Of a stretch of 64,000 nt of DNA, positions 4,357-63,027 are shown in pieces (positions within the stretch are counted from its first letter, which is position 1; every line of letters begins with the position of its first letter). The stretch lies in the NCBI GenBank assembly GCA_963797475.1, contig CAWCPR010000001.1, positions 53,284 through 117,283 of the forward strand, given 5' to 3'. Made by a program: the position numbers and the translations under genes. The notes below the pieces were generated by a model. It searched no databases and was not told the origin of the DNA. It saw only the letters and a list, made by a program, of their open reading frames with translations. This DNA comes from an uncultured Chloroflexia bacterium. GTDB lineage: Bacteria; Chloroflexota; Anaerolineae; Anaerolineales; UBA4823.

Positions 4357-4785
4357 ATGAATGAGCGCTCATCACAAGTGACATATCAAACTCTAAAACA
4401 CCAGGATATTACCGAAAAGATACTGCATGCATTCTTAAAAATCGTTTACCCGCAGTTAGGATATGGCTTTTTGGAAAAGGTGTATGAAAATTCGATGCGG
4501 ATTTCGCTTCAAGCCTTGGGATTGAACGTTTTACAACAAGAAAGGATCGCTGTCAATTTTCATGGACAAATCGTCGGGGAATATTATGCCGACCTATTGG
4601 TTGAAAAAGCCGTTTTGGTGGAACTCAAGGCGGCGCCTCGAATCTTGAGCGAGTATGAAGCTCAATTATTGAATTATTTGCGAGCGACGCCATATGAAGT
4701 CGGACTTTTACTCAACTTCGGTCCAAAACCTGAATTTCGTCGTAAAGTGTTTGATAATGAACGCAAGTCCATTACCTGGTCATGA
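4357..4785 (+). CDS. GxxExxY-family protein
   Basis: A 142-aa protein with the family hallmark ...GEYYADLLVE.... It sits in a conspicuously AT-rich islet (about 4190-4880) flanked by GC-rich genes. Confidence 0.7.
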   Translation: MNERSSQVTYQTLKHQDITEKILHAFLKIVYPQLGYGFLEKVYENSMRISLQALGLNVLQQERIAVNFHGQIVGEYYADLLVEKAVLVELKAAPRILSEYEAQLLNYLRATPYEVGLLLNFGPKPEFRRKVFDNERKSITWS

Positions 4786-9442: not shown

Positions 9443-9469
9443 TTTTATCTCCTATAGAAATTAACAGGC

Positions 9470-9725
9470 TTGTGGGCGACGGGCGCAAGAGCGACGGGCA
9501 CAAGGCCCTATGCTACCGGGACGATGGGACGCCGACGGGCACATGTAGCATAGCCCCTTGTGGGCGACGGACACATGTAGCATAGCCCCTGTGGGCGTTA
9601 GAGCCCCTTGTGGGCGACGGACACATGTAGCAAAGCCCCTTGTGGGCGACGGACACATGTAGCATAGCCCCTTGTGGGCGACGGACACAAGCGACGGGCA
9701 CAAGGCCCTATGCTACGATACTGGT
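9470..9725. repeat. REP-like palindromic repeat array (about four tandem 32-bp units TTGTGGGCGACGGACACATGTAGCATAGCCCC flanked by inverted GCGACGGGCACAAGGCCCTATGCTAC copies)
   Basis: Direct reading: contiguous units with no spacers, and the flanking copies are in inverted orientation. Confidence 0.8.
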
Positions 9726-12700
9726 GCGAAACCGGCGCTGTTGATTTCTTCGCTGGTCCAATAGAAGGCTTCCTCCAGCTCCGGGTTCCAATTCTCGCGC
9801 TGGCGGCGCAGGCGGTTGAGCGAATCCAGGTCGCCGATACGCGCCAGAGCCTCGATGGCTTTGCGCCGCAGGTAGGTGATATCCGTTACAACCGGGTTGG
9901 CGCCTAAAACGACGCCGTGCAAATCCCCGGCGGCAATCTGCTCGAACAGCTCTTTATAGCTGCGCCGGTTGAGCCAGCCCAAGGACTGGATGGCGTGCGC
10001 CTTGACGCCGATATCGCGAAACTCGTACAGGCAGCGATCCAGGAAATGGGCAGTGGTCGCATCTTGCGCCCGCACCTTGCCGATCAGGTAGGCCAGGCGC
10101 TCGTACCAGCGCGCCCGGCGGCGCCAGGCGCGCGCGTCGATGTTTAGCGTTTTGGCGACCGTCTCATCCAATAAGGGCAGGATCGCCCGGGCAACCACCT
10201 GGGCCGGGTCGACCAGGGCCAGGGCGTCCGTCACCGCCCAGCTCGTCTGCGACGGGGTATCCGGGTCCAGGAAGACCGAGACGAGGCAATCCACGGCCTC
10301 GTCGTTGTTGATCTCGCCCAGGGCAAAGGCAGCGATGGCCTGCGAGCCGGCTGCTTCCGAGCGCAGCCGCTTGCCCAGAGAAGCGGCGTCACGCACGCAC
10401 CACAATTTCAGCACTCCAGCCAGCGTGGGACTGGCCTTCTGGATCTCCCGCTCGTAGCGCGGCATCATCCTCTGCAGGGCGTTGGCGGCAGCCATGCGCA
10501 CACTGCTGTATTCAAAAGTCGGCAATCCCTGCCAGTCGGTGCGCACGCGCTCGAACGCCGCCCGGGCCAGGGCCGGGATGGTCTGAGGCCGCTGCAACTG
10601 GCCCAGCACCAGGGCGGCGCGCGCCCGGCGGGCCTCGCGCGGCTCGTTCGCCGTATCCAACTGGCGCACCAGGACGTCGAACACCTGGTTTTCCAGTTGC
10701 GGGTCGATCTGGCGGCCGCGGTTTTCCAGCAGGCAGCGCGCCAGCAGGTACAACTGCTCGCTCTGGGCCAGGTTCACCCCGTAGACCATCATGCGCAGCA
10801 GGCCGTTCGGGTTGCGCAGCATGCGGCTGGTCAAAACCAGCACGTCGCCCCACCAGCGCAGCCGGGACAGGCGGCCCAGCGAGGCGGTGATGTCGTCCAG
10901 GACCCGGCTGCGATCCGAACGCTGGACGATCTCGCGGGCGCAGCAGTAGGCTTGCAAAGCCGGGTAATTGAAGCGCAGCGAATCGGCCCCCACGCGGGCC
11001 AACAGGTTGCACTGCACGAGCTGGTCAAAAAGGTCCTCCAGGCTGTATTCGCGGTTGCCGCGCACGGAGGCCATGATCTCAAAGGCGTTTCGCACCGGCA
11101 GGACCAGGGTGCGATTCGAGTGCATCTCCCAGGCCAGGGCATACACACTGCGCCCGCTGCGCGAGCGCATGCCGTGCAGCGGCGAAACCTCCGCCAGGGC
11201 GTCATCCACCCAGTGCTCGAGCACGTCCCGGCGGGACTGCGGGTAGCTGCCCTCCTGCGCCTGGCGCAGCATGCCCAACAGCGACCAGGTGGTGGAAGCC
11301 AGGTCGAACAACTGCCGGGCAGCCAGGACGCGGTACAGCCTAGGCCCGGCCGGGTCGCTCAACCCCTGCAGGAACATCTCGACCTTGCGCTGGGACAGCG
11401 GCTGGATGACCAGCAAATCCGTGGCGGCCCGAAAATTACGCCGCGAGTATTCTTCCAGGTCCACCGCCAGGATGAACTCGTGGCGGGAGCCGCGGGCGAG
11501 GGCCTGGATCTCCTCCCAGGCGTCCTGGCGCTGGTCGTCGGGCAGCTCATCGCCGCCATCCAGGATCAGGCGCAGGATCGGCCCCTGATCCCCTTCCAAC
11601 AGCTCGTCAAAATCCGCCGGGGTTAAAGCCGGCCAGAATTCTTGCAGGTTTTGCAAGGTCAGCCCTTCCAGGCGGCTGCGGGTGCCCGGCTGGACCGACT
11701 GCAAGCCGCGCAAATCCACGTAAACCGGGATGATCAACTGGCGGACGCCCGGCTGGAGCGAGTTTTCGGCGGAGATGAGCACCAGCCGGCGCATCTGGGT
11801 GGATTTGGACGAACCGGGGATGCCGGCGACGACGATGAAGGCCCCTTGCGGCTTGCCGCGCGAGCCGGGCTCTTGGCGGCGCGCGGCGAAAATTTGCAGG
11901 GCGATATCGAGCAGGTCCATCGCCGGCAGCGGGTCCTGCCCGACAAGCCGCAGCCTGTCCAGGCTCAGGTCGCCGGCCAGGTGGGCCACTTCGATCGGGA
12001 TCGGCAGGTAGCCGCGCTTCTCCATATCGCTGCGCTGGCGGTTGCGGATGGCCTGCAAAGCCAGCCGGGCCGGGTCGGCGGCGAAAAGCTGCCCGGTTTT
12101 CAGGCGCATGAACAGCACCGGGATGGACCAATCCGCGCCCCGGTCGTTGAAAAGCAGCAGGCGCGCCTGGTTCAAAGCCCGGTCCACCTGGCCGTGCTCG
12201 AGCAGGTGGCCGTAAAAATCGGCGTTAAGCTGGCGGGCCACGTCCACCGGCACGAGGTCCTGCATGGCTACCACCGCAGCGACCCCGCATCTCACCAGGC
12301 TGGGGCCCAGGCCGAGAAAACCATGCGCCTCGCCTGGGTCGCGGCGGGCGGATTCACAGGCGGTCAGGAAGACCAGCCTGGGCAGCGGATCGGCCTGGGC
12401 CAGCTTTTCAACGATCTCGCTGTCGCGGGCGGCGTGGAATTCGCCATTCTCACTCTCCAGGTACAGGGCGGCTGTGCCGGGGGCATTCGAGTCGGGGCGG
12501 CGGTAAGCGCCGTGGCCGATGTAATGCAGGACATGGCAGCCCTGCATGCCGCGCAGCAGGTTATCCAGGCTGGTCGGTCCGGGCAGGATGTGGTAGCCGT
12601 CCTGCTCCAACTGGCCGCGCAGGGCCGGGTCGAGACCGCTGCGGCCGGGCATCACCGAGACTTCCACCAGGTCCTGGCTGGCCAGGTCGCCAAGCGCCTG

Positions 12701-13237
12701 GTGCAGCGCCTGCACCTGGTCGTTCACATCCACCGGGCTGAGGCCGGCCGGCAGGTCGCTGGGGTTGGAAAGGGCCGCCAGGATGCGCACCGGTCGCTCG
12801 GTCAGCGGCGGCGTTTCGGCGATCTCCAGGCCGGTGTAGCGCGAGAAAGGGGTCAGGCCGGAAGTCGCCAGGGACAATTCCTGGCCTTTAAACGAGTGGT
12901 ACAGGCGCTCCCAATTGAACGCCTGCAGCTCGCTGGCGCTGTCGTCGATCCAAAGCTGGACGCGCAGCACGCCCTCCGCCTGGGCAGCGGCCTGGGCGGC
13001 CGCCCGCCCGGCGACCCGCTCGTAGGCGCGCAGGATCGGGCCGGCGAACAAAGCCTTATCCAGGGTTAAGCCGTAGGCCTGGGCGTCCAGTTGAGCGGCC
13101 AGCAGCGCTTTCGGATCGATCTGGAGCTGGCCGCCGGAAAAATAGCTGCCATCATCCAGCTCGGCGTCCACGGCGTACGCCTTGCTGTCCTGGGAAGAGC
13201 GGGTGATATGGATGAGGATCTTGGCCGGCTCGCTCAT
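9713..13237 (-). CDS. CHAT (caspase-like) peptidase - NACHT/STAND P-loop NTPase - HEAT-repeat protein
   Basis: N-terminal CHAT dyad HYIGHGAY...FLTACESAR. Walker A VVAGIPGSSKST and Walker B-like ILRLILDGGDE. C-terminal PBS-lyase/HEAT-like repeats. Its ATG lies 1 nt after the stop of the upstream 111-aa gene. Confidence 0.85.
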   Translation of the reverse strand: MSEPAKILIHITRSSQDSKAYAVDAELDDGSYFSGGQLQIDPKALLAAQLDAQAYGLTLDKALFAGPILRAYERVAGRAAAQAAAQAEGVLRVQLWIDDSASELQAFNWERLYHSFKGQELSLATSGLTPFSRYTGLEIAETPPLTERPVRILAALSNPSDLPAGLSPVDVNDQVQALHQALGDLASQDLVEVSVMPGRSGLDPALRGQLEQDGYHILPGPTSLDNLLRGMQGCHVLHYIGHGAYRRPDSNAPGTAALYLESENGEFHAARDSEIVEKLAQADPLPRLVFLTACESARRDPGEAHGFLGLGPSLVRCGVAAVVAMQDLVPVDVARQLNADFYGHLLEHGQVDRALNQARLLLFNDRGADWSIPVLFMRLKTGQLFAADPARLALQAIRNRQRSDMEKRGYLPIPIEVAHLAGDLSLDRLRLVGQDPLPAMDLLDIALQIFAARRQEPGSRGKPQGAFIVVAGIPGSSKSTQMRRLVLISAENSLQPGVRQLIIPVYVDLRGLQSVQPGTRSRLEGLTLQNLQEFWPALTPADFDELLEGDQGPILRLILDGGDELPDDQRQDAWEEIQALARGSRHEFILAVDLEEYSRRNFRAATDLLVIQPLSQRKVEMFLQGLSDPAGPRLYRVLAARQLFDLASTTWSLLGMLRQAQEGSYPQSRRDVLEHWVDDALAEVSPLHGMRSRSGRSVYALAWEMHSNRTLVLPVRNAFEIMASVRGNREYSLEDLFDQLVQCNLLARVGADSLRFNYPALQAYCCAREIVQRSDRSRVLDDITASLGRLSRLRWWGDVLVLTSRMLRNPNGLLRMMVYGVNLAQSEQLYLLARCLLENRGRQIDPQLENQVFDVLVRQLDTANEPREARRARAALVLGQLQRPQTIPALARAAFERVRTDWQGLPTFEYSSVRMAAANALQRMMPRYEREIQKASPTLAGVLKLWCVRDAASLGKRLRSEAAGSQAIAAFALGEINNDEAVDCLVSVFLDPDTPSQTSWAVTDALALVDPAQVVARAILPLLDETVAKTLNIDARAWRRRARWYERLAYLIGKVRAQDATTAHFLDRCLYEFRDIGVKAHAIQSLGWLNRRSYKELFEQIAAGDLHGVVLGANPVVTDITYLRRKAIEALARIGDLDSLNRLRRQRENWNPELEEAFYWTSEEINSAGFAPVS

Positions 13238-17230: not shown

Positions 17231-20200
17231 TTACTGGGCGACCAACGTCACATTCTTCGGATTGTAATTCACAGTATACCCCTGCCCATGCCCATCGATT
17301 GTGGCAAACTGACCGGCGCGTGCGGCAAAGGTCATCACGATAAAGCTGTCGCCAAGGGTAGGAACATAACCGCCGGCCAACGTGACGTCCAGCGCGCCGT
17401 CTAAGGTTGCATTTCCAACGATGGCGAACTGATCATACTCTGTAATCGGAGCCTGGCCGCCAATTTTTACATGCAGAACGCCGCTGGCGGTCTGGGTGAA
17501 ATCCCCGCCAAAACGCAACTGTCCCGACTGGACGTCCACGCTGCCGCTGTTGACGAAGGCCGGATTTACGCGGGTCTCGCCGCTGCCGCCCGATTTTGTG
17601 AGGGAGCCGTGGTTCTGGAAAGATGCCCCGCCCGTACTGATATAGATGAAGTCATCGCCCTGGAAGTCGAAGGTCGCTCCCGCCAGGTTGGCGATGACTG
17701 CCGCATGGTAGGCGGTGAGCGAGCCGTCCAGGAGAACTGCCGCCCCGGCGTTCTCCAGGCTGCGACCATCCAGGTAGCGCCCGTAGCTGCCGCTGAAGGT
17801 CAGGCCGCCGTTGGCCCGCGTGGTCCCAATGCCGCTCATGGTGCCGTAGTTCCAGGTCAGCATGCCTGCCACATCCACGTCCCCGTTTCCCGTCAGCGTC
17901 CCGCCGCTCATCGTCAGGGCGCTGGTGCCGGCGGTCAGGCCAGCGCTGACCGAGAGCGTGCCGCCAGCCAGGGTGGTGTTGGCTGCAGTGTAAGTGCCGC
18001 TCAGGGTGAGCGTGCCGGAGCTGAGGCGCACATTGAGACCAGAGAGGCTGCCGCTCAAGGTGTGCGACCCGCCGCCGATCTCCAGGGTTCCGGCGCCCTG
18101 GAACGAGCCGGCGTCCATACCGCCGCCTCGCAAGGTGAGCGTGCCAGCCTGCACGTCGACGACCCCGCTGTTGTTGAGCGGGATGTAGATGCTCGCCGAC
18201 CCGCTGCCAGCCGATTTGCTGAGCGTCCCCTGGTTGTCGAACGTGGCGCCTCCCGTGCTGGAGTAGATGAAGTCATCGCCCTGGAAGTCGAAGGTGGCTC
18301 CCGCCAGGTTGGCGATGACTGCCGCATGGTAGGCGGTGAGCGAGCCGTCCAGGAGGGCTGCCGTCCCGGCGTTCTCCAGGCTGCGGCCGTCCAGGTAGCG
18401 CCCGTAGCTGCCGCTGAAGGTCAGGCCGCCGTTGGCCCGCGTGGTCCCAATGCCGCTCATGGTGCCGTAGTTCCAGGTCAGCAAGCCTGCCACATCCACA
18501 TCCCCGTTCCCCGTCAGCGTCCCGCCGCTCATCGTCAGGGCGCCGGTGCCGGCGGTCAGGCCAGCGCTGACCGAGAACGTGCCGCCGGCCAGGGTGGTGT
18601 TGGTTGCAGTGTACGTGCCGCTCAGGGTGAGTGTGCCGGAGCTGAGGCGCACATTGAGACCAGAGAGGCTGCCGCTCAGGGTGTGCGACCCGCCGCCGAT
18701 CTCCAGCGTGCCGGCGCCCTGGAACGAGCCGGCGTCCACGCCGCCGCCTCGCAAGGTGAGCGTGCCAGCCTGCACGTCGACTACGCCGCTGTTGTTGAGC
18801 GGGACGTAGATGCTCGCCGACCCGCTGCCAGCCGATTTGCTGAGCGTCCCCTGGTTGTCGAACGTGGCGCCTCCCGTGCTGGAGTAGATGAAGTCATCGC
18901 CCTGGAAGTCGAAGGTGGCTCCCGCCAGGTTGGCGATGACTGCCGCATGGTAGGCCGTGAGCGAGCCGTCCAGGAAGACTGCCGCCCCGGCGTTCTCCAG
19001 GCTGCGGCCGTCCAGATAGCGCCCGTAGCTGCCGCTGAAGGTCAGGCCGCCGTTGGCCCGCGTGGTCCCTATGCCGCTCATCGTGCCGTTGTTCCAGGTC
19101 AGCATGCCTGCCACGGCCACGTCCCCATTCCCCGCCAGCGTCCCGCCGCTCATCGTCAGGGTGCCGGTCAATACGGAGGCCTGCCCGATATCCAACGTCC
19201 CGCCGGAAAGTACGATCGCTGCCTCGCTTTTCAAGCTGAGAACGGCATCCGCGCCACGGGAATGGACGATCGTGACAGCTCCGGGAACATCGATAATCAC
19301 ATTCTGAGTGGGGCCGGGTATGAGATTGGGTTTCCAGTTGAAAGGATCGTGCCAGGAGGTGCCATCGCCTTCGCCGTCCCAATAGACGGTGCCGTAGCCG
19401 GGCTGTTCGTGGAAGAAATCGAAAAAGAGGAACACAAAATCCCCGGTTGCCGGGCCGACCCCCTCTATTATGCGGGTTTTATTGTTCGCCACGTCATAGG
19501 CGACGGCTGTAAAGGGCTCCCCAGCGGGGATGAGAGGCACAAAGAAGTAGCCGCCCGGGTCTGCTACTCCGCTGAAGGGAATGGGTGAACCGGCCGAGAA
19601 TACCTTAATGATCACCGGGCTGGCTGCTTGCGGAGCGCGAGCGGCGCCGCCTCCACCTCCGCCCACGTTGCCGCACCCATTGCCGCCTGGAGGCGGCGCG
19701 GAGCCCATACCGGTCAGCCCGGAGCCGCCGCCCGTCTGGGAAGGCGAGCAAACAAGCGCCGGTGTTGGCGGCGGGCATTCAGCATCGCCGAGAAACCAGA
19801 TTTCTATCATCCCAAAAACTATCGTCAATCCGGCGGCGCAAAGGCCGCCAGCAAGCGGGCTAAAAATTATTGCACAGCCCAGGGACGTCAGGGTTATCCC
19901 TACCAGAACGAGCGAACGGATAATTTTAAGCTGGGTCTTCGTAAAACAGCCGGCCAAAAGGCGTGAAATCGAGTCCGCTTCCAGTTGGTTTGCCTGCGCC
20001 AGGATGCCCGAATTTTCGATGAGCGTGGCCGCGTCGATCAAAAATTGCTGAACCGCGGGCGATGGGTCACTGCTGAGCTGTTCAAAAATAGAACCGGTCT
20101 CGGTAAACTCAATAATCAATTGAGCCAACTTGTCATTGGTACCGACAGAGGTCTGGATCCCATTCAGAGTGGCCAACGATTGGGTGAAGAAGTCATGGAT

Positions 20201-21433: not shown

Positions 21434-21490
21434 TCTATTTTGATGAATCTCTCTTCAATATGTTGCGTGGTGCGCCACAAGCGCCCAACA
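21434..21490 (-). repeat. Copy A of conserved bipartite ~60-nt motif (GTGTTGGGCGC...ACGCAACA ... TTCATCAAAATAG), ends 5 nt before the ATG of the 17231-21430 gene
   Basis: Direct sequence comparison with five other copies. Confidence 0.7.
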
Positions 21491-21553
21491 CTATTCGAAC
21501 CAACAGTTATGCCCGCATTGCCGTCTCAAGCCGCTTCTCTGCCGAGGGCGCGC

Positions 21554-23653
21554 TTACTGCTCCTGAGGCGCCGCTTCAACGGGTTGGGTATGGATATCGA
21601 TAGAACCTAAAAACAAGGCCAGGTCAGTGATCTCTGAGGCGTTCAAAGCGTTGCCATTTTCTTGCGGGTCGGGGTGGCCGGAAGCCAACAACGCCTCCAG
21701 GTTCGGCATCGAGCCATCGTGCAGGTAGGGGGCGGTCAGGTTGACGTTCAGCAGGGAAGGAGGGTCGAAACCCGTCTCCCCGCGCACATCGCGAGGATTC
21801 AGACTGCCCACATCCAACAAGACGCCATCCATCATTCCGTTTCCATCCGGGTCTAAGGTTCCGGCCGGCCCGGGTAAAGCGCTGTTCGTCCAGTTTGGCC
21901 CGCCATGACAGGTCGCGCAGCCAGCCGATTGGAACAGCTCTCGCCCGCGGGAGACATCGCCTGCGGGGGAAGCCAGCGCAGGAACCGGTATCCCGGCGTC
22001 CAGGAAAGCCGCCAGGGCATCCAGGGCTGAGGAACGGCCGCCGTTCGGCGTTCCCAGCAGCGCCGGATCGGCGCCTGGCGCCAGCCCCACGCCATGCTGA
22101 ATGAGCTGCAGGGTCTCTTCCACATCCTGGGCTTCATCCAGGGCCGCCGACCAGTGCCAGGGCAGGGTGTGAGAAGCGTTCCACAGGGGCGGAGTTTGGC
22201 GCGGGCCGTCCGGGAACATCCAGGTGAGGCCATCTGTACCCCCATCCGGGTGACAACTGGCGCAGGACATCCACGAGCCTTGACTGAGGCGCGGGTCAGC
22301 AGCGTAATTGAACAGGATCTTGCCTTGTAGGATCTCTGGCGGCAGCAATTCAGCGCTGACCTTGATTTCGGAAACCTGCTTCAGACTTTCCAGATCGAGA
22401 ACCGTGATCGAGCGCCCGAGGTAGTTCATCACGTAGCCCCGGCGGCCGTCAGGGCTAAGGGCCATGCCGCGCGGATTCATCCCCACCGGTAAAAAGGTTA
22501 CCAGCCGGGGTTGGTCCGGCGTAGAAATATCCACCACTTCCACCAGATTGCTTCCGGCCAGGACAATATAAAGCCTTTGCCCGTCCGGGTCAGGGATTGC
22601 AGCCAGCGGGTTATTCACGGGCGACCCAAATATGACCTGATCGTTGAGCGGTAGATAGGCGGCGGCATATTCCCGGGCCTTTTCCAGATCCAGCGTCGAA
22701 ACCGCGGCGAACAACGTGGTGGTCAATCCGCGTGGCAAATCCGGGGCGGCGCGCTCGTAAGGCAGCCAGGCGCGAGAACCCAGAATGGTGATCCCCATGA
22801 GCAAGCTAGGAAAACCATGCTCGTCTGGGAGCAGCGTGATTTGCCCGGAAACGGCGTTGGCGGCAGGGTCGATGATCGTGACGCGCCCCTGGCGGCTGTC
22901 GTCCCGTCCTTCTTCGCCGCCCGCACGTGGAAAGGCCTGCTGGTGGGTGACATACACCCGCTCATCCAGATCTTCGTTGTCGCCATCATCGCTGATGGCA
23001 ACTGCAAATGGCCTGGCAGCCACCGGGATTGCCGCGATCTGCTCCAGGCTGGCGGTGTCGAATACGGCTACCTGGTCTGAAGTCGTGAGGGAGATGTAGG
23101 CTCGCGAGCCGCTTGGGGTCAAAGCCAGGCTGGCCGGTTCCGGCCCGACCGGGAGGCTGGCTTGCACCCTTTTCGCCAGGCCATCGATCACCACCAGCGT
23201 CCCGGCTGCCCGGTCTAAGACGAAAACGCGGCGGCCGTCTACCGCCATGGCGACCGACCAGGGCGTCTGCCCAACCGGGATTTCGGCCGTCTTTTCCAGG
23301 GAAGCCGCATCGAGCACGCTGATCGAGCCTGAATCAGGGTTCGCCACCCAAACCGACCCGTCAAGCGGCGAAATGGCCAAAGGCCCACTCCCGGAGACCT
23401 TTCCACTCTCGCCGTTGGCCCGGGTGACGAAGGGCAGATACGTGGCAGCGGTGTCTGTATTCAAGGGTTGTCGCAGCTCAGCCGCGCGGACCTGGCCTCC
23501 CAAAAAGATACTGGCGATACCGGTTATGACCAGCAGGATGAATTTGCGAGGGTGTGAGAAGTGTTGGGCGCCTTGGCGCGCTACGCAACACGATTTCAGA
23601 TATTCATCAAAATAGGTCGCCATTTTCGCGAAAGATGATTTTGCCGCTCCCAT
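21554..23653 (-). CDS. YVTN-type beta-propeller fused to di-haem cytochrome c peroxidase-like domain
   Basis: Two CxxCH motifs (CASCHPDGG, CATCHGGPN) and repeated ...SV.V.D....V..I propeller blades. The true start is probably downstream of the listed ATG, near the signal peptide KFILLVITGIASIFLGGQVRA. Confidence 0.75.
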   Translation of the reverse strand: MGAAKSSFAKMATYFDEYLKSCCVARQGAQHFSHPRKFILLVITGIASIFLGGQVRAAELRQPLNTDTAATYLPFVTRANGESGKVSGSGPLAISPLDGSVWVANPDSGSISVLDAASLEKTAEIPVGQTPWSVAMAVDGRRVFVLDRAAGTLVVIDGLAKRVQASLPVGPEPASLALTPSGSRAYISLTTSDQVAVFDTASLEQIAAIPVAARPFAVAISDDGDNEDLDERVYVTHQQAFPRAGGEEGRDDSRQGRVTIIDPAANAVSGQITLLPDEHGFPSLLMGITILGSRAWLPYERAAPDLPRGLTTTLFAAVSTLDLEKAREYAAAYLPLNDQVIFGSPVNNPLAAIPDPDGQRLYIVLAGSNLVEVVDISTPDQPRLVTFLPVGMNPRGMALSPDGRRGYVMNYLGRSITVLDLESLKQVSEIKVSAELLPPEILQGKILFNYAADPRLSQGSWMSCASCHPDGGTDGLTWMFPDGPRQTPPLWNASHTLPWHWSAALDEAQDVEETLQLIQHGVGLAPGADPALLGTPNGGRSSALDALAAFLDAGIPVPALASPAGDVSRGRELFQSAGCATCHGGPNWTNSALPGPAGTLDPDGNGMMDGVLLDVGSLNPRDVRGETGFDPPSLLNVNLTAPYLHDGSMPNLEALLASGHPDPQENGNALNASEITDLALFLGSIDIHTQPVEAAPQEQ
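23561..23615 (+). repeat. Copy B of conserved bipartite ~60-nt motif
   Basis: GTGTTGGGCGCCTTGGCGCGCTACGCAACACGATTTCAGATATTCATCAAAATAG. It lies between convergent-tandem minus-strand genes, antisense to both. Confidence 0.7.
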
Positions 23654-30414: not shown

Positions 30415-30640
30415 CTTTTCCCTTCCCTTGTTCCCACGCGGAGCGTGGAAACATCGCCCTCACCCCTGCCCCTCTCCCGCGTGCGGGCGAGGGGAATCTG
30501 GCCGGCAGGCAGTTTCCCCTTGTTCCCACGCTCCGCGTGGGAACAACTTCTTTCCGCTCCGCGGGCTCTTTGCGCGGTCAAGGCGCATGGACGCAGAGCT
30601 CACGGAAGAGGTTACCACGCAGAGCGTGGTAACCAGGAAC
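30415..30640. repeat. Cluster of palindromic hairpin repeats (CCACGC-NNN-GCGTGG / CCCGCGTGCGGG family)
   Basis: Contains TTCCCACGCGGAGCGTGGAAACA, CTCTCCCGCGTGCGGGCGAGGGG, GTTCCCACGCTCCGCGTGGGAACA and GGTTACCACGCAGAGCGTGGTAACC. The same family occurs at 16750-16990 and 33057-33081. Confidence 0.75.
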
Positions 30641-30926
30641 CAGGAACCAACCAAGAACAAGAGATATGGCAGCCCCATATATGGGTGAAAATTCCAAAAT
30701 ATAGGTTTTAACCCCCGTATATGGGGCATTTTTACGCCGGAATTAACCTTGACATTTCCAATTCGTACTATAATTAAAGCGCGTACGCAGTTGGCAGGGG
30801 ACCGGCGTTGTGGCAGCGAGCACCAACCGCCAAAACACGCCTGTCGTCGCTGGCCGCGTACTTATCGATTAACCTGGTTAAGGCAGCCCAGCCCATGCGA
30901 CTTTCAGGCGGCTTCCCAGGACAAAA

Positions 30927-30982
30927 GTGTTGGGCGCGCTTTGCGGGCCGCGCAACATGATTTTAGATCAACATCAAAATAG
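30927..30982 (+). repeat. Copy C of conserved bipartite ~60-nt motif, ending 9 nt before the ATG of the SPFH gene (includes GGAG RBS)
   Basis: GTGTTGGGCGCGCTTTGCGGGCCGCGCAACATGATTTTAGATCAACATCAAAATAGGAG. Confidence 0.7.
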
Positions 30983-33056: not shown

Positions 33057-33095
33057 TCAGGAAAGGGTTACCACGCTCCGCGTGGTAACCAGGAG
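33057..33095. terminator. Bidirectional hairpin terminator between convergent genes
   Basis: Perfect palindrome GGTTACCACGCTCCGCGTGGTAACC followed by GTTTTC. A second hairpin TTGGAAG...CTTCCAA lies at 33021-33044. Confidence 0.5.
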
Positions 33096-41689: not shown

Positions 41690-42230
41690 AGGATTGAATC
41701 CCCCTCATTCCCCCTTGAAAAGGGGGAGGCTTGGAATCCCCCTCGATCCCCCTTACTAAGGGGGACGTTTGGAATCCCCCCAAGGCGGTCACGCCGGGCA
41801 CAAGCTTGAATCCCCATACCCCCTTGAAAGGGCGACGTTTGAATCCACCAAGGCGGTCACACGCCGGGCACAAGCTTGGAATCCCCCTCAATCCCCCTTG
41901 CCAAGGGGGACGTTTGGAATCCCCCAAGGCGGTCACGCGTAGCATAGCCCCTTGTGGGCGACGGGCACAAGTCACACGCCGGGCACAAGCTTGGAATCCC
42001 CCTCGATCCCCCTTGCCAAGGGGGACGTTTGGAATCCCCCAAGGCGGTCACACGTAGCATAGCCCCTTGTGGGCGACGGGCACAAGTCACACGCCGGGCA
42101 CAAGCTTGGAATCCCCCTCGATCCCCCTTGCCAAGGGGGACGTTTGGAATTTCCCCAAGGCGGTCACGCGTAGCCCCTTGTGGGCGACGGGCACAAGGCC
42201 CTATACTACAATGCGCCGGGATGGTTTCAT
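41690..42230. repeat. Tandem array (~4 units of ~115-130 bp) of composite REP-like element containing CCCCCTTG..CAAGGGGG hairpins and GTAGCATAGCCCCTTGTGGGCGACGGGCACAAG modules
   Basis: Direct reading. The sub-motif family matches the arrays at 9470-9725 and 43620-43850. Confidence 0.8.
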
Positions 42231-42393: not shown

Positions 42394-43620
42394 ATGCTTT
42401 ACGACATGGTTTTCGAAGGGGGTGGTGCAAAAGGGACGGTCTTCGTCGGGGCGATGCAGGAGCTGCAATCGCGCGGCCACACGCCGGGACGCTTGCTGGG
42501 CACGTCCGCCGGCTCGATCATGGCGGCTTTGCTGGCGGCCGGCTACCAAACCGACGAGATGCAGCAGGCCCTGACCGAAAAGCAAAACGGCCAGCCGGTC
42601 TTCCTGGGCTTCCTGCAGATCCCGCCCCCGCTCACGCAAGACCAGATCGCCCACAGCACGGTGCGCGACCTGCTCCGCAAAGTCGACGTAAAATTAATCC
42701 CCGATTTTCTGGAAAACCAACTGGACAACGCCATCGCCGAGGCCCTGGCGACCTCCAGCTACACCAACCGCATCTTTTCCTTTCTCGAGCTGGGCGGTTT
42801 TTACGCCGCCGACACCTTTTTGACCTGGTTAAAGGGCAAACTCAATTCCGGCATCTACCCCCTGGAGCGCGGCGCCCACAAAAAAGGCGAGCAGCGCAAT
42901 TTTGGGGACATGAACCTGGCCGAATTCTTCGAGGCGACCGGCGTGGATCTCTCCGTGGTAGCGGCCAACACCCGCGACCGGGAAATGCTGATCCTGAACC
43001 ACCGCACCGCGCCGGACCTGCCGGCCGCCTGGGCGGTGCGCATGTCGATGAGCCTGCCGCTAGTCTGGCAGGAAGTCGTCTGGCAGCCCGAATGGGGCAA
43101 GTATCGCGGCGTGGATATCAGCGGCTGTTCAGTGGTGGATGGCGGCCTGCTCTCGAACTTCCCCATCGAGCTGTTCCTCTCCAACCAGCCGCAGGTCACC
43201 GGGGTGATGGGCGATTTGGTCGCCGGCGAACAGAATGTGCTCGGTTTCCTCATCGACGAGACGATTGAAGTCCCCGGCGCTCCCCCGCTGGAAACGAAGG
43301 AAAATGCATTCCAGGTCAGCGAGCTGCGCCCGGTCAGCCGGGTGACCAACCTGGTCAATACGATGCTTCAGGCGCACGATAAAAACGTGATCGAATCTTT
43401 CGAGCGCTTCGTCATTCGATTGCCGGCGAAAGGGTTCGGCACGATCGAGTTTGGCATGAGCGACGAGCGCCGCAACGCGTTGATCGCGGCCGGGCGGCAA
43501 GCCACCGCGACTTACTTCGACCGCCTGGAAGCCGGAGCCTCCTTCGGTGTGGGCGAAGCCACGGATCCGGCGGTGTCGAGCGCGGCCGACCGCATCGCGG
43601 CGCGCATGCTGTCGCGCTGA
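42394..43620 (+). CDS. Patatin-like phospholipase family protein
   Basis: Oxyanion motif GGGAKG, nucleophile elbow GTSAGS and catalytic DGG (VVDGGLLSNFP). Start chosen at ATG 42394 with RBS AGGAGGG. Confidence 0.85.
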   Translation: MLYDMVFEGGGAKGTVFVGAMQELQSRGHTPGRLLGTSAGSIMAALLAAGYQTDEMQQALTEKQNGQPVFLGFLQIPPPLTQDQIAHSTVRDLLRKVDVKLIPDFLENQLDNAIAEALATSSYTNRIFSFLELGGFYAADTFLTWLKGKLNSGIYPLERGAHKKGEQRNFGDMNLAEFFEATGVDLSVVAANTRDREMLILNHRTAPDLPAAWAVRMSMSLPLVWQEVVWQPEWGKYRGVDISGCSVVDGGLLSNFPIELFLSNQPQVTGVMGDLVAGEQNVLGFLIDETIEVPGAPPLETKENAFQVSELRPVSRVTNLVNTMLQAHDKNVIESFERFVIRLPAKGFGTIEFGMSDERRNALIAAGRQATATYFDRLEAGASFGVGEATDPAVSSAADRIAARMLSR

Positions 43621-43850
43621 CGCCCACAAGGGGCTATGCTACCGAACTTGTGCCCGTTGTGCCCGTTCGCCCTGACGCCCGCAATGGGTTACCGAACCAT
43701 GGCGGCCATCCGCAACGCCGGGCGCATGCTGTCGCGCTGACGCCTCAAGTAGCCTAGGGCCTTGTGCCCGTTGTGCCCATTGTGCCCGTTCGCGCTGACG
43801 CCCACAAGGGGCTATGCTACCGAACCATGGCGGCAGTCCGCCACAGGCAT
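43620..43850. repeat. REP-like element array in inverted orientation, including a duplicated copy of the last ~25 nt of the patatin gene
   Basis: CGCCCACAAGGGGCTATGCTAC at 43620 and 43798. GCGCATGCTGTCGCGCTGACGCC is present at both 43597-43620 and 43716-43740. Confidence 0.75.
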
Positions 43851-44958: not shown

Positions 44959-45039
44959 GTGTTGGGCGCTTGTGGCGCATCACGCAATATGATGGAGAGT
45001 TGCGGCTACGCCGCAATCTCCAGAGATTCATCAAAATAG
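44959..45039 (+). repeat. Copy D of conserved bipartite motif, with a 25-nt hairpin insertion (GGAGAGTTGCGGCTACGCCGCAATCTCC) between the two conserved blocks
   Basis: Direct comparison with the other copies; it lies 70 nt upstream of the 45112 start. Confidence 0.7.
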
Positions 45040-45111
45040 GAAATTCGGGTTTCGGTTGGCAAACCGGAACCCCGGACCATCCAATTAGCCGATCACCTGA
45101 ACACCTGGACC

Positions 45112-48220: not shown

Positions 48221-48276
48221 GTGTTGGGCGCGCTTTGCGGGCCACGCAACACGATTTTAGATAAACATCAAAATAG
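48221..48276 (+). repeat. Copy E of conserved bipartite ~60-nt motif
   Basis: GTGTTGGGCGCGCTTTGCGGGCCACGCAACACGATTTTAGATAAACATCAAAATAG. It lies in the divergent intergenic region between the GGDEF and cyclase genes. Confidence 0.7.
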
Positions 48277-48387: not shown

Positions 48388-48416
48388 TTGACGCGCCCCT
48401 TTGCATCTGGTATAGT
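48388..48416 (+). promoter_or_regulatory. Sigma-70-like promoter (TTGACG-17-TATAGT, extended -10 TGG) upstream of the cyclase-ATPase-TPR gene
   Basis: Hexamer match and spacing read directly. It lies about 75 nt upstream of the ATG at 48492. Confidence 0.45.
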
Positions 48417-48491: not shown

Positions 48492-51284
48492 ATGAAAAAC
48501 AACCATTCCTCGCCAGAAAAGATTTCTGATGCTCATTCTGGCGCCGTCACCTTTCTTTTCACCGACGTTGAGGGCAGCACCCAGCTCTGGGAGCAGCACC
48601 CTGAAGCCATGCGGTCTGCTCTCGCCCGGCACGACGCCCTGTTGCGAAACATCATCGAAACCCTGGGTGGACGGGTGATCAAAACCACCGGCGACGGCCT
48701 GCATGCCGTCTTTACACACCCCAGCCAGTCGGTATCGGCGGCCTTATCCTGCCAGGAAGCCCTGTTTCACGAGTCATGGAGCGGTCTGCCCGGCCCCATA
48801 CGTGTGCGTATGGGCCTGCACACTGGCGAAGCTGAGCTGCGGGACGGCGATTATTACGGCTCAGTGGTGAACCGCGCCGCGGGCTTGATGTCGATCGCCG
48901 CCGGGGGACAAACCCTGCTCTCCGCGGCCACTTGCGAGCTGGCGCGCGAGCAACTGCCTGAGGCAGCGCTCATCCGGGATTTGGGCGAGCACCGTCTCAA
49001 GGACCTGACCCGCCCCGAGCACATTTTTCAGCTAAGCAGCCCCGGTCTGCCCAGCGATTTCCCAGCGCTGCGCTCACTCGACGCGCTGCCCAACAACCTG
49101 CCCTTGCAACTGACCAGCTTCATCGGGCGCGAGGGCGAGATGGCAGAGGCGAAACGCCTGCTGGCGGCGACGCGCCTGCTGACCCTGACCGGGCCGGGCG
49201 GCACCGGCAAGACCCGGCTCTCGCTTCAAGTGGCTGCGGAAGGTTCCGATGATTACCCGGCCGGCGTCTGGCTGTTGGAGCTGGCTCCCCTATCCGACCC
49301 CGCCCTGGTTCCGCAGACAGCCGCGTCGGTTTTAGGGGTGCGCCAGCAGCCAGGCCGCCCGCTGGTGGAGGCCCTGATCGATTACTTGCGGGCGAAATCG
49401 CTCCTGCTGATCCTGGATAACTGCGAACACCTGGTCGACGCTTGCGCCCAACTGGCGACGACCCTGCTGAGCGCCTGCCCGAAACTAAGGATTTTGGTGA
49501 GCAGTCGCGAGGCCTTGGGTGTGGCGGGCGAAACGATCTTGCGAGTCCCTTCGCTTTCCTTGCCGGATCTTCACGCATCGACGCCCCAGGCGCTCAACCC
49601 ATCCGAAGCTGTACGGCTTTTCGTCGAGCGCGCCCAGGCGGCCCAGCCGGGCTTCGCCCTGACGGAGGCCAACCTGGGCGCGGTCGTCCAAATTTGCCGG
49701 CGGTTGGACGGCATCCCGCTGGCGCTCGAGCTGGCCGCGGCGCGCCTCAAGCTGTTCAGCGCCGAGCAGATCGCGGCACGCCTGGACGACCGTTTCCGCC
49801 TGCTCACCGGCGGCAGCCGCACCGCCCTGCCCCGCCAGCAGACCCTGCGCGCCCTGATCGATTGGAGCTACGACCTGCTCGACGAAGCCGAGCGAAAGGC
49901 CTTAAACCGCCTGTCTGTGTTCGCCGGCGGCTGGACATTTGAGGCGGCTGAAGCCGTCGCCGGCCCCGAGACGCTGGAGCTGATGTCCCGCCTGGTGGAC
50001 AAATCCCTGGTCGTCGTGGAGGATGCAGCCCAGGCCGGCGAAAAGCGCTACCGCCTGCTGGAGACCATCCGCCAGTACGGAGGCGACAAGCTGCTGGAAT
50101 CCGGCGAGTCGCAAGCGGCCCGCGATCTGCACCTGGCAGCCTATCTTTCTCTGGTTCTGGAGGCTGAACCGAAGCTGGACAGCCCGGAGTTAGTGCGCCG
50201 GCTGGATCGCCTGGAACCTGAGCTGGACAACTTTCGCCAGGCAATGGAATGGGCGCTGGAGCGCAGCCCGGAAGCCGCGCTGCAAATTTCCGCCGGCCTG
50301 CTTGCTTACTGGCAGGTGCGCGGCAACATCAGCGAAGGCCAGCGCTGGCTGAGCGAGAGCCAGGCCCGGGTTGAGGCGTTAGCGCCGGTGGAAGGGGAAG
50401 CCAAGCGCCAAAGACTGGCCTACCGGGCCAAGGGGTTGTGGGTGGCCGGGACCCTGGCTTTTGAAAATGGCGAGCTGAATGCCGCCCGCCTCTCGTTGGA
50501 AGAAAGCCTTCCATTGGCGCGCCAATCCGGAGAAAAGAGAACGCTCAGCAAGGCGCTGGGGATGTTGGGATTTACAGATGTGTGGTTAGGCGACGCCGCA
50601 GCGGCGGAGGCGGTGATCGAGGAAGATCTCAGACTCGCCCAGACCACGCACAACAGCCAGGATATCGTCATGATCAAGGCGGTCCAGGCTAACCAGGCCG
50701 CCCTGATCCAGCATGACTTCGCCGCAGCAAAAGCTTACACCCAGGATGTCTTCCGGCTCCTGCACGAGAACCCTGGCAATCCCTGGACCGCGGCCGTGTA
50801 CATTATGGGTTTGGGAACCATGGCTGCCTTTCGAGGAGACTATAGCGAAGCGTTAAGAAACTTTAAGGAAGGCGAAGCCTTGTTCCGCTCGTTCGGCGAC
50901 CGGCACATGGTCAACGCCATGCAGAGCGAACGGGCGCATATTGAGCGGCGGCTGGGCAATCTCGCCCAGGCCGCGGCGCTCTATTCGCAGACGCTCCTGA
51001 GCTGGCAGGAGATCGGAAACCGGGCCGCGCTGGCGCATGAATTGGAGTGCCTGGCCTTCATCGCCGCGGCGCAATCCCAATTCGAGCGGGCGGCGTGTTT
51101 GCTGGGAGCCGCCGAGGCCTTGCGCGAAAGCGTCAATTCGCCCATGCGGGCCGTCGAGCGCGACGAATACGAGCAGAATGTGTCCGCCTTGCGCGCCCAG
51201 TTAGAGCCTGAACAATTCGCCGCGGCCTGGGCCGAAGGCCGGGCGTTGACGATGGAGCAGGCAGTCGCCTATGCCGCCGCGTAA
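48492..51284 (+). CDS. Class III adenylate/guanylate cyclase domain - P-loop (NB-ARC-like) ATPase - TPR protein
   Basis: Cyclase motifs VTFLFTDVEGST and IKTTGDGLHAVF. Walker A LTGPGGTGKTRLS. Long helical/TPR C-terminus. No LuxR HTH. Confidence 0.9.
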   Translation: MKNNHSSPEKISDAHSGAVTFLFTDVEGSTQLWEQHPEAMRSALARHDALLRNIIETLGGRVIKTTGDGLHAVFTHPSQSVSAALSCQEALFHESWSGLPGPIRVRMGLHTGEAELRDGDYYGSVVNRAAGLMSIAAGGQTLLSAATCELAREQLPEAALIRDLGEHRLKDLTRPEHIFQLSSPGLPSDFPALRSLDALPNNLPLQLTSFIGREGEMAEAKRLLAATRLLTLTGPGGTGKTRLSLQVAAEGSDDYPAGVWLLELAPLSDPALVPQTAASVLGVRQQPGRPLVEALIDYLRAKSLLLILDNCEHLVDACAQLATTLLSACPKLRILVSSREALGVAGETILRVPSLSLPDLHASTPQALNPSEAVRLFVERAQAAQPGFALTEANLGAVVQICRRLDGIPLALELAAARLKLFSAEQIAARLDDRFRLLTGGSRTALPRQQTLRALIDWSYDLLDEAERKALNRLSVFAGGWTFEAAEAVAGPETLELMSRLVDKSLVVVEDAAQAGEKRYRLLETIRQYGGDKLLESGESQAARDLHLAAYLSLVLEAEPKLDSPELVRRLDRLEPELDNFRQAMEWALERSPEAALQISAGLLAYWQVRGNISEGQRWLSESQARVEALAPVEGEAKRQRLAYRAKGLWVAGTLAFENGELNAARLSLEESLPLARQSGEKRTLSKALGMLGFTDVWLGDAAAAEAVIEEDLRLAQTTHNSQDIVMIKAVQANQAALIQHDFAAAKAYTQDVFRLLHENPGNPWTAAVYIMGLGTMAAFRGDYSEALRNFKEGEALFRSFGDRHMVNAMQSERAHIERRLGNLAQAAALYSQTLLSWQEIGNRAALAHELECLAFIAAAQSQFERAACLLGAAEALRESVNSPMRAVERDEYEQNVSALRAQLEPEQFAAAWAEGRALTMEQAVAYAAA

Positions 51285-53352
51285 ATTTGCCGACCTCGAA
51301 TTGGGCCTGCTGCCCCAGGAACCGGGCAGCTACCGCCTCGATTTCCGCTTCGAGCTTCCCGATAGCGAAACCGATCTGCGCTCGGCGAAGATGGTCGCCG
51401 AGATCAGCCCGGATGCACTGCTGCGCTTCCTGCCCGGCGAGGCGGAGTACGGCAGAGCGCTCACCCAGGCGCTCTTTCAGGACCCCGAGCTCAAGGAGAA
51501 ATTCGCCGCGGCCCTGGCGGTCTGCCAGCAGAACGATCTCGCCTTGCGCCTGCGCCTGGTGATCGACGGGCGAGCGCCGGAGCTGCACGACCTGATCTGG
51601 GAATCGCTGCGCAACCCGCTGGACGATACCCCCCTGGCCACCAGCCAGAACATCTGCTTTTCACGCTACCTGGGCGGCAAGGACTGGCGACCAATGCCAC
51701 TGCGCCGCCAGTCGCGCATGTTCGCCCTGGTCGCCGTCGCCGCCCCGGACGACCTGGAAGACTTCCACCTGGCGCCGATCGACGCTGAAGCCGAGGTCGC
51801 CCGCGCCCGCGCCGCGCTGGGAAACATCCCGCTGACCACCCTGGGCCGCAAAGCCGGCGGCGACCCGGCTACCTTGAACAACCTGGCGCGGCTGCTCAGC
51901 CAGCGAAAGGCAGGCGGGCACAGCCACTTCGATATCCTGTATCTGATCTGCCACGGCAGCCTGCAGCGCGGCGAAGCCTGGCTGTGGCTCGAAGATGAGG
52001 CCGGGAAGGCCGCCCGGGTCTCCGGGAGCGAGCTGGCGACTCGCATCCAGGAGCTGCCGGAGGCGCCCATGCTGGTCGTGCTGGCGTCCTGCGAAAGCGC
52101 CGGCAGCGCCCAGGGCCGCGCCCTGGCTGCCCTGGGCCCCAACATCGCCCAGGCCGGCGCGCCGGCTGTGCTGGCCATGCAAGGCAAGATCAGCCAGGAG
52201 ACCAGCGCCCGCTTCACGGGTGCCTTTTTCCGCTCCCTGGCGGACCAAGGCGTGGTCGACCTGGCGGCAAGCGTTGCCCGCGGCGAGGTCAGGGACCGGG
52301 ACGATTACTGGATGCCGGCTTTGTTCATGCGCCTGCGCAGCGGGCGCATCTGGTACCAACCCGGCTTTGCGGGGGACAGCTCCGACCTGGTCATCTGGGA
52401 TGGCTTGCAGACATTCGTAGAGGAAAAGCTGTGCACCGCGATCCTGGGCCCGGAGCTGGCCAGGCCTTTGCTGGGCGACGAGCGCGAGATCGCCCTGAAA
52501 TGGGCCGACAGCCATGGCTACCCCCTGGCTTTCCAGGACCGGGGTGATTTATCCCGCGTGGCGCAGTACGTGGCCACCAACCAGAAAATTCGCTATCTGC
52601 GCATCGCCTATTACAAAGCCTTGCGGGAGGGACTGCTGGAACGCCTGCAAGATCCCCTGCCTGAAAATCTCGGGGATCCCGAACAATGGAAGCCGGATGA
52701 CCTGCTGCAGGCGCTGGAGCTGTCCGCGGCTGCCCGCTGGACGGAGGCCGCCGAAAACCCGTACCGCCTGCTGGCCCAATTGGGCTTGAAAATCTACATC
52801 ACCGCCGGCCAGGACGACCTGCTGTGCCAGGCGCTCAAAGAACGCGACGGCGACATCCAACCTGAGACGCGCATGTGCCCCTGGAACGAGGCGGTGCGCC
52901 TCGACCCGAGTCTGTGGATGTATGACGACGAGCCCACACCCGAGAAACCACTGATCTACCATTTGTACGGCCATTACAGCCAGCCGGCTTCGCTGGTGCT
53001 GACCGAAGACGATTATTTCGACTACATGATCAGCATGACCGTCCACCGCGACCTGATCCCGGATTCGGTCAGCGCCGCCCTGGCCAATTCGGCCCTGCTG
53101 TTCCTCGGCTTCCAGTTGGAAGACTGGCAGTTCCGGGTCTTTTTCCGCATGGTCATGAACCAGCCGGGAGCCCAGGGGCTGGAGCAGTTCAGCCACGTGG
53201 CGGCCCAGATCGCGCCGCTGGAAGGGACCATCCAGGACGCCGAGCGCGCCCGCCGCTACCTGCAGCGCTACTTCATGTCGGACCGCAAACAGATCGACCT
53301 GTACTGGGGGACCAGCATCGATTTCCTGCAAGACCTGGTTAGACGCCTGTGA
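51271..53352 (+). CDS. CHAT (caspase-like) peptidase fused to SIR2-like (SIR2_2 type) domain
   Basis: CHAT dyad DILYLICHGSL...VVLASCESAGS. C-terminal IYHLYGHYSQPASLVLTEDDYFDY...LLFLGFQLEDWQFRVFF resembles a SIR2_2 fold. The ATG overlaps the last codons of the upstream gene. Confidence 0.8.
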   Translation: MPPRKFADLELGLLPQEPGSYRLDFRFELPDSETDLRSAKMVAEISPDALLRFLPGEAEYGRALTQALFQDPELKEKFAAALAVCQQNDLALRLRLVIDGRAPELHDLIWESLRNPLDDTPLATSQNICFSRYLGGKDWRPMPLRRQSRMFALVAVAAPDDLEDFHLAPIDAEAEVARARAALGNIPLTTLGRKAGGDPATLNNLARLLSQRKAGGHSHFDILYLICHGSLQRGEAWLWLEDEAGKAARVSGSELATRIQELPEAPMLVVLASCESAGSAQGRALAALGPNIAQAGAPAVLAMQGKISQETSARFTGAFFRSLADQGVVDLAASVARGEVRDRDDYWMPALFMRLRSGRIWYQPGFAGDSSDLVIWDGLQTFVEEKLCTAILGPELARPLLGDEREIALKWADSHGYPLAFQDRGDLSRVAQYVATNQKIRYLRIAYYKALREGLLERLQDPLPENLGDPEQWKPDDLLQALELSAAARWTEAAENPYRLLAQLGLKIYITAGQDDLLCQALKERDGDIQPETRMCPWNEAVRLDPSLWMYDDEPTPEKPLIYHLYGHYSQPASLVLTEDDYFDYMISMTVHRDLIPDSVSAALANSALLFLGFQLEDWQFRVFFRMVMNQPGAQGLEQFSHVAAQIAPLEGTIQDAERARRYLQRYFMSDRKQIDLYWGTSIDFLQDLVRRL

Positions 53353-53367
53353 GCCCCCCACCGGACG

Positions 53368-62970: not shown

Positions 62971-63027
62971 GGGTCGGGCGCTTGTGGCGCACCACGCATT
63001 ATGGTGAAAAGAGTTTCATCAAAATAG
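62971..63027 (+). repeat. Copy F of conserved bipartite ~60-nt motif (5' block slightly diverged), immediately upstream of the GntR promoter
   Basis: GGTCGGGCGCTTGTGGCGCACCACGCATTATGGTGAAAAGAGTTTCATCAAAATAG. Confidence 0.65.

Follow-up and report, generated by a model that had tools for sequence, protein, structure and literature searches.

The 64,000-nucleotide stretch of DNA analysed here (the window) holds six copies of a unit of 55-57 nt, one of them an 81-nt variant, which is far beyond chance. Judged from their sequences, the six copies are probably a miniature non-autonomous mobile element specific to this genome or lineage and not a conserved regulatory motif (probability about 0.6).

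Identification of the repeat family

The 3' block of the unit, CATCAAAATAG, occurs six times in exact form in the window. When up to one mismatch is allowed, it has seven matches against 0.65 expected, and none of 100 shuffled sequences reaches seven. The 5' block, GTGTTGGGCGC, is exact in five of the six copies and has two mismatches in copy F. An HMM built from the six copies recovers all of them at E = 4e-18 to 1e-16 in the 64-kb window. It gives no further match in the window below E = 2, and thus no weaker or degraded copies are hidden there. The six-copy bipartite motif that an earlier note on this DNA had described is therefore real, since the exact block counts and the HMM agree. Its loci are as reported there, except that copy A is shifted by one base to 21435-21491. 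The tiny ORFs reading VRHKRPTL, which had been taken as translations of the element, were confirmed in their reading frame. The copies are as follows.

Copy A: 21435..21491, minus strand; 57 nt, subfamily A/D/F; sense to the downstream gene
Copy B: 23561..23615, plus strand; 55 nt, a subfamily by itself; antisense to the minus-strand genes around it
Copy C: 30927..30982, plus strand; 56 nt, subfamily C/E; sense; ATG at 30992
Copy D: 44959..45039, plus strand; 81 nt, subfamily A/D/F
Extra 28-nt hairpin in copy D: 44994..45021, plus strand; GGAGAGTTGCGGCTACGCCGCAATCTCC, bracketed by AGAG...AGAG, unique in the window
Copy E: 48221..48276, plus strand; 56 nt, subfamily C/E; divergent intergenic region
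Copy F: 62971..63027, plus strand; 57 nt, subfamily A/D/F; the most degraded copy (GGGTCGG..., CGCATTAT)

All six copies are solitary. The closest pair, B and A, is inverted and 2.1 kb apart around the cytochrome gene; nothing supports a composite transposon, and we treat this arrangement as coincidence. The DNA comes from one contig of 3.05 Mb in an assembly of the metagenome type, and short strings such as GAAGAGAGAT faintly resemble adapter sequences, which could point to an artefact of sequencing or assembly, for instance leftover adapters. Such an origin is extremely improbable. The copies differ by 5-16% and by indels, they occur only between genes or in frame in a coding sequence, and their flanks are ordinary genomic sequence. 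To our knowledge, no common adapter in its full sequence matches the repeat.

Anatomy of the unit

The core of the unit is about 54-56 nt long and runs from TGTTGGGCGC to CATCAAAATAG. Three subfamilies can be told apart (A/D/F, C/E and B). Identity is 53/56 between C and E and 54/57 between A and D outside D's insertion, and 84-89% between subfamilies. The near-identity of the C/E and A/D pairs argues for recent copying. Both termini are strongly conserved and mutually unlike, and the interior carries substitutions, single-base indels and, in copy D, the 28-nt hairpin. Conserved termini around a middle with indels and a hairpin are the conservation pattern of mobile DNA. There are no terminal inverted repeats, the 5' end TGTTGGGCGC and the 3' end CATCAAAATAG not being complementary, and no target-site duplication, as the flanks are not duplicated in any of the six copies. 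The spacer of copy D had been described as a perfect 12-bp hairpin; it is in fact imperfect, with 13 pairs and a one-base bulge. It represents a nested insertion, or else a segment lost from the short forms. Another imperfect palindrome, TTCGGGTTTCGGTTGGCAAACCGGAACCCCGG, follows copy D directly at 45040-45085 and lacks a T-tract; it may be one more small palindromic element, or else a hairpin for processing or termination between the SDR and Zn-dehydrogenase genes.

A pentanucleotide A-N-W-A-G stands directly 5' of each of the six copies (AATAG, AGAAG, AAAAG, ATTAG, ATAAG and AAAAG) and resembles the 3' end of the unit, which is AATAG in all of them. In copy A the 5' flank AATAG is the same as the copy's own last 5 nt. 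A left flank that varies within limits, together with an invariant right end, is what elements inserting 3' of a short specific sequence would be expected to show. The invariant A, A and G at -5, -2 and -1 could also belong to the element and not to the target, as judged from these six sequences. A-N-W-A-G occurs about 6 times per kb and therefore does not by itself restrict the insertion sites.

When folded as RNA or single-stranded DNA, all six copies form two subterminal hairpins, with DNA-fold z-scores of -2.1 to -4.75. H1 is G+C-rich and spans the 5' block. It has two alternative registers, GUGUUG/CAACAY, or GUGU/ACGC running on into a GC stem. H2 is A+T-rich and short; it forms between the variable spacer and the invariant 3' block, in a register that varies between subfamilies. 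The pairing of UGUUG with CAACA and of GCGC with GCGC, which had been proposed for the 5' block, is possible, 94-95% of the cells being paired, but it shows no compensatory change. A covariation check on the stems of the six copies gave no two-sided change, and the shuffle control equalled the observed value in 500 of 500 cases. As no pair has changed on both sides, the predicted two-hairpin structure is plausible and lacks covariation support.

These folds bear on the possibility that the repeat is a cis-regulatory RNA leader or translation module, that is, an mRNA stabiliser, a ribosome standby site or a processing site. The folds are more stable than those of shuffled sequences, and the one-sided changes in the stems all keep G-U pairing, both of which speak for such a function. 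However, copy F has three broken pairs in the outer register that are uncompensated, and compensatory pairs are absent overall. The positions of the copies bear on the same question and are described next.

Copy C and the orthologous SPFH leader

Seven relative loci with SPFH genes 83-93% identical to that of the window, amounting to about 80-95 kb of non-redundant DNA, served as the comparison set. Close homologues of the SPFH protein are labelled Chloroflexota, Thermoflexales or Anaerolineales by their sources. The SPFH leader is without a copy in 7/7 of these loci. In the four closest relatives (SPFH 90-93%) the empty site reads (A)AAAAG-GAGT...ATG without interruption. The filled site of the window reads ...GACAAAAG-(TGTTGG...CATCAAAATAG)-GAGTTTGCAATG, with AAAAG immediately before the unit and GAG immediately after it, and the last bases of copy C, AATAG, re-create the interrupted context. 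Copy C ends 9 nt before the ATG, as the earlier note had stated. It does not supply the GGAG of the SPFH gene, as had also been claimed, for only the first G lies within the repeat. The relatives without the repeat already read AAAAAGGAG at the Shine-Dalgarno (SD) position, and the GGAG is therefore ancestral and not derived from the element.

An upstream non-coding block is common to the window and the loci L099, L100 and L104; two CCCCATATATGGGG palindromes and a TATAAT box belong to it, along with about 120 nt of leader.

Conserved SPFH/flotillin upstream block: 30673-30885 in the window, 9611-9830 in L099/L100 and 41-250 in L104; palindromes 40 nt apart, TATAAT at 30769-30774

Copy C is placed between this conserved block and the SD of the SPFH gene, and from the shared block it most likely lies inside the SPFH 5' leader. 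The relatives' leader is about 110 nt longer and includes a conserved single-copy hairpin. Because this segment is missing in the window, the event at copy C was not a simple clean insertion. The absence of the repeat from all seven SPFH leaders, which carry a different conserved hairpin, and the ancestral SD both argue against the leader function considered above.

Immediately ahead of the SD, a covarying hairpin around CTGCCATCGCCAACGG has been retained in the relatives but lost from the window genome. Together with the upstream block it may form an undescribed operator-plus-leader RNA for the SPFH gene. We considered whether this hairpin might be a diverged member of the repeat family, since it has a similar size and A-rich flanks, and rejected the idea: it shows no nhmmer similarity and is single-copy in the relatives. 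The SPFH gene is also surrounded by a third family of repeats, 25-nt palindromes of the forms GGTTACCACGCnnnGCGTGGTAACC and TTGTTCCCACGCnnnGCGTGGGAACAA, three of which lie upstream of it (30428-30453, 30521-30546 and 30610-30634) and one downstream (33066-33090). These were not found in the relatives' loci.

Copy B inside a coding sequence

Copy B had been placed antisense between two genes. It is antisense, but it is not intergenic; it lies inside the 5' end of an annotated CDS, the beta-propeller/di-haem cytochrome gene at 21554-23623 (minus strand), whose ORF crosses the antisense copy. The annotated protein, P0121, has 689 aa and begins MATYFDEYLKSCCVARQGAQHFSHPRKF / MATYFDEYLKSCCVARQGAQHFSHPRKFILLV, with copy B translated as residues ~3-21, TYFDEYLKSCCVARQGAQH(F). 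Between copy B and the signal-anchor segment there is no in-frame ATG, GTG or TTG, and in homologues this hydrophobic segment is preceded by just 6-9 residues. Deletion of 54 nt (TGTTGG...TAG) or of 57 nt from the sequence gives M-A-T-(F)-S-H-P-R-K-F-I-L-L-V, an ordinary signal-peptide start. The ORF, the annotation, the short N-termini of homologues and the restored signal-peptide start indicate that copy B is an in-frame insertion of 18 or 19 codons at the N-terminus, as read from the sequence.

Positions relative to genes and promoters

Copy A sits in a 123-nt spacer between two co-oriented genes, with the stop of the beta-propeller/cytochrome gene (21554) on one side and the start of a gene for a 1399-aa Ig-domain protein on the other. 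Its distance to the latter, formerly put at 5 nt, is 4 nt to the first ATG (21430) and 10 nt to the second (21424), and the second has the better SD spacing. The Ig-domain surface-protein gene itself contains three internal tandem repeats of 621 nt (17580-19121), which are 90-91% identical. Copy D starts 20 nt past the stop of an SDR gene and ends 72 nt ahead of the start of a Zn-dehydrogenase gene. Copy E has its 5' end 24 nt from the ATG (48196) of a minus-strand GGDEF gene, to which it is antisense, and lies downstream of minus-strand promoter-like sites. Copy F starts 80 nt past the upstream stop, and its downstream gene encodes GntR. Of copies D, E and F, which had been described as lying 70-200 nt upstream of plus-strand starts, E is in fact 215 nt from such a start and closer, at 24 nt, to the divergent GGDEF gene.

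A start codon is at most 25 nt away in four of the six copies, which have it in both orientations, A and C being sense and B and E antisense. Five of the six copies are on the plus strand and four are sense to the nearest gene, neither of which is significant; the 5/6 bias (two-sided binomial p about 0.22) carries no statistical weight. GC skew is flat across the window (-0.06 to +0.01) and uninformative on the direction of replication. The neighbours are functionally unrelated: an Ig-domain surface protein, a cytochrome, SPFH, dehydrogenases, GGDEF, cyclase-STAND and a GntR regulator.

Several of these positions would suit an RNA leader. The 3' ends of A and C are 4-10 nt from start codons, with UAG|GAG or UAG|AGG at the junction, and D and F are sense and between co-oriented genes. 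On the other side, B and E run antisense to the gene beside them, with B even inside a CDS, the genes next to the copies form no coherent set, and Rfam gives no match. Moreover, E and F are upstream of predicted promoters: that of the plus-strand cyclase gene (48388-48416) lies beyond copy E, and copy F ends 8 nt ahead of the -35 of a strong TTGACA-N17-TATACT promoter-like site (63036-63064) of the GntR gene, so that both copies fall outside the predicted transcripts of their downstream genes. Taken with the evidence from the stems and the SPFH leaders, an RNA leader is quite unlikely. As four copies have a start codon no more than 25 nt away, a selected role in translation or mRNA processing still has some probability.

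We also considered a promoter or promoter-proximal DNA element, in which the unit would provide a -10-like AAAATA, a UP-element-like A/T tract or the site of an abundant protein. The 3' block is A/T-rich in a genome of roughly 60% G+C, the end of copy F, 8 nt from the TTGACA -35, is at about the position of a UP element, the antisense CTATTTT gives -10-like matches in D and E, and GTGTTG...CAACAC is an inverted repeat. However, a sense-strand sigma-70-like promoter (-35/-10 with a spacer of 16-18 nt) overlaps none of the six copies, and a block spacing of about 13 to 38 nt is unsuited to a bipartite promoter. An identity of 84-95% over about 56 nt exceeds what a binding site needs and points to copying. 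A density of about one copy per 10 kb beside unrelated genes is unlike a regulon, and the relatives are without the element. We regard a promoter function as improbable. Still less probable are dispersed small RNA genes or other independently transcribed units. The unit is compact, with a stable 5' hairpin and intergenic positions, as such genes would be, but it has neither its own promoter nor a convincing terminator, one copy is within a CDS and one within a 5' leader, copy F is degraded, and covariation and an Rfam match are both absent.

Three explanations had been offered in the earlier note: a domesticated miniature repeat, a cis-regulatory element acting as leader or promoter, and a small RNA. 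The miniature repeat is supported, with its domestication a hypothesis, and the regulatory and small RNA readings are not supported. The regulatory reading is unsupported because the SPFH relatives are without the element, the copies occur in both orientations, one copy is translated, no promoter overlaps a copy and Rfam has no match. By inspection, sigma-54 sites, integron attC, dif/Xer sites and group II intron domains do not fit the repeat either, and ARAGORN finds no tRNA fragments.

Distribution outside the window

No copy of the family was found in the roughly 80-95 kb from relatives, where the best nhmmer match had E = 0.7. At the density of the window (6 per 64 kb), 7-9 copies are expected there, and the probability of finding none is about 1e-4 to 5e-4. 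Two pattern scans of JGI metagenomes, one strict and one relaxed, gave no matches, and neither did a scan of viral contigs or a BLAST search of plasmids and phages. In Rfam, the whole window gave no match to the repeat at the gathering threshold, and copies C and D at E <= 10 gave only noise, for example CRISPR-DR at E > 1. A loose pattern, GGGCGC-N9-17-CGCA-N14-44-CATCAAAATAG, had at least 98 matches in a genome-contig collection, and all of those listed were chance matches without the GTGTTG context. A composite pseudo-protein of the element's open translations matched nothing among proteins at E <= 10, the peptides being too short. Because no copies were found in relatives against 7-9 expected, the family appears to be lineage-restricted and, as far as can be tested, private to this lineage.

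Proposed mode of spread

These data make it fairly probable that the repeat is mobile DNA of the repeat type that spread recently, and not a regulatory element under selection. By analogy with known systems, we tentatively propose a specific single-strand mechanism of the Y1/HUH type. A Y1/HUH transposase supplied in trans would drive a 'peel-and-paste' spread of single strands, following the logic of IS200/IS605 and REP/RAYT. Insertion would occur 3' of A-N-W-A-G, which is common in the A-rich run into the Shine-Dalgarno sequence (AAAAG|GAG). The 3' end of the unit would re-create the interrupted sequence, so that insertions close to a ribosome-binding site (A and C) or in frame (B) would do little harm and survive, and any effect on expression would be a by-product. 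Such a target preference, together with the survival of harmless insertions, would suffice to explain why copies abut gene starts, and would do so better than a function. No transposase domain, including Y1_Tnp, was found among the 40 ORFs of the window searched against Pfam.

The absence of a transposase from the window and the decay of copy F would also fit a passive, immobile repeat spread by recombination or gene conversion, or the remnant of an end of a larger element (IS110-like, IS91-like or of a site-specific recombinase). At site C, an ancestral segment of about the repeat's own size, bounded by two A-runs, has given way to the repeat, as could happen by recombination, and the 'AG' at both junctions is compatible with a 2-bp crossover core as well. 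Against this, the near-identical pairs C/E and A/D indicate recent copying, and the defined ends with their consistent 5' flank point to a sequence-specific insertion reaction. A passive repeat is thus unlikely, and it differs from the miniature mobile element only in the mechanism of spread.

A more far-reaching version of the mobile-element reading is rather doubtful. In that version the repeat would be an undescribed mini-element of the Y1/HUH type with two subterminal hairpins and an AATAG end that mimics its own insertion site, which would make insertion near-scarless in the A-rich leader stretch close to the Shine-Dalgarno sequence and, in frame, in the first codons of genes. The family could then colonise regions of translation start, and its copies could be recruited as 5'-UTR or N-terminal modules.

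Other features of the window

A second repeat family forms arrays at 9469-9716 (plus), 41927-42200 (plus) and 43612-43825 (minus), with the unit GTAGCATAGCCCCTTGTGGGCGACGG(G/A)CACA(A/T)G. The unit is REP-like, a GTAG tag followed by a CTTGTG...CACAAG hairpin, and is missing from the relatives' loci. The presence of these GTAG-tagged arrays makes RAYT-type enzymes in the genome plausible. At 41691-42200, a tandem repeat of 115 nt in 3-4 units with GGAATCCCCCTCGATCCCCCTTGCCAAGGGGGACG hairpins is interleaved with the GTAG units and fills the spacer between the Dak2 and patatin genes.

Three large genes stand in a row at 48492-57144; they encode an adenylate/guanylate cyclase-AAA-TPR (STAND-like) protein, a CHAT protease-SIR2 protein and an nSTAND1-WD40 protein. 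With a CHAT-HEAT gene found elsewhere, at 9713-13237, they resemble an island of the conflict or defence type. A small stand-alone gene for a PD-(D/E)XK_3 (GxxExxY-type) nuclease is present at 4357-4785; in the relative locus L105 a purine-biosynthesis (AIRS) gene call carries a PD-(D/E)XK_3 domain as an N-terminal fusion.

If the mobile-element reading is correct, neither annotation nor modelling should treat the motif as a regulatory element or an RNA family. The repeat would instead mark recent genome dynamics in an uncultured Chloroflexota lineage that has several other private repeat families, and it would be a case in which a target-mimicking repeat end sits on ribosome-binding sites without destroying them. 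The repeat can also mislead gene callers, as copy B adds 18-19 residues to a protein and the VRHKRPTL ORFs are translations of the element. Should a partner Y1/HUH gene be found, the repertoire of REP/RAYT and IS200/IS605 systems would be extended by a new architecture in Chloroflexota.

Comparison with known systems

REPs are defined by a terminal, unpaired GTAG (GYAG/GTRG) or CGTC tag beside a palindrome of 20-40 bp, and REP-like repeats in other bacteria accompany RAYT Y1 transposases (PMC3733652). Like REPs and REPINs, the present units are short, dense and mostly extragenic hairpin repeats, with subfamilies in one genome and an occasional intragenic copy (PMC3733652). They also share a short tag directly 5' of the hairpin (WAG here, GTAG in REPs), a strain- or lineage-specific distribution, and the lack of terminal inverted repeats and target-site duplications (PMC3733652). 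Nevertheless, the family is not a REP. The tetranucleotides next to the hairpin on its 5' side are ATAG, GAAG, AAAG, TTAG, TAAG and AAAG, in which only AG is constant, and CGTC is absent from both ends of the repeat. The unit differs further in its length of about 55 nt, its second, A/T-rich hairpin and its invariant 11-nt 3' block. Unlike REPINs, the six copies form no head-to-head or tail-to-tail dimers or clusters. They are mostly upstream of genes and not downstream, and no RAYT is present among the 40 window ORFs.

The repeat resembles IS200/IS605-type ends and PATEs in its logic, as far as the analogy goes. In IS200/IS605 elements, the left end is always found inserted 3' of a target of four or five nucleotides (PMC5027513). 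In the present family the left end follows A-N-W-A-G, which may be such a target or in part element sequence, and the right end is invariant. Asymmetric ends without inverted repeats and the lack of target duplication are common to the repeat, to IS200/IS605 ends and to PATEs, and the predicted two-hairpin folds of the repeat may correspond to their subterminal hairpins. In contrast to IS200/IS605, the target-like sequence is degenerate, and no tnpA or tnpB is known for the family. In IS608 the cleavage sites are 19 and 10 nt from the hairpins, whereas the presumed cleavage sites of the repeat abut them.

Copy B recalls RPEs and intragenic REPs, in which a palindromic repeat lies in frame in a gene and adds extra residues (PMC3733652). 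The RPEs of Rickettsia, however, are 100-150 bp long and carry a CGTC tag, and only one of the six copies here is intragenic. MITEs of the TIR type (Correia/NEMIS, ERIC, Nezha, RUP and BOX) are likewise small, non-autonomous and intergenic. They are often co-transcribed with their neighbours and sometimes alter promoters, RNA processing or translation. Such MITEs have TIRs and TSDs (e.g. TA), whereas the repeat has neither. Overall, we rate it as a new family within the known class of small bacterial interspersed repeats.
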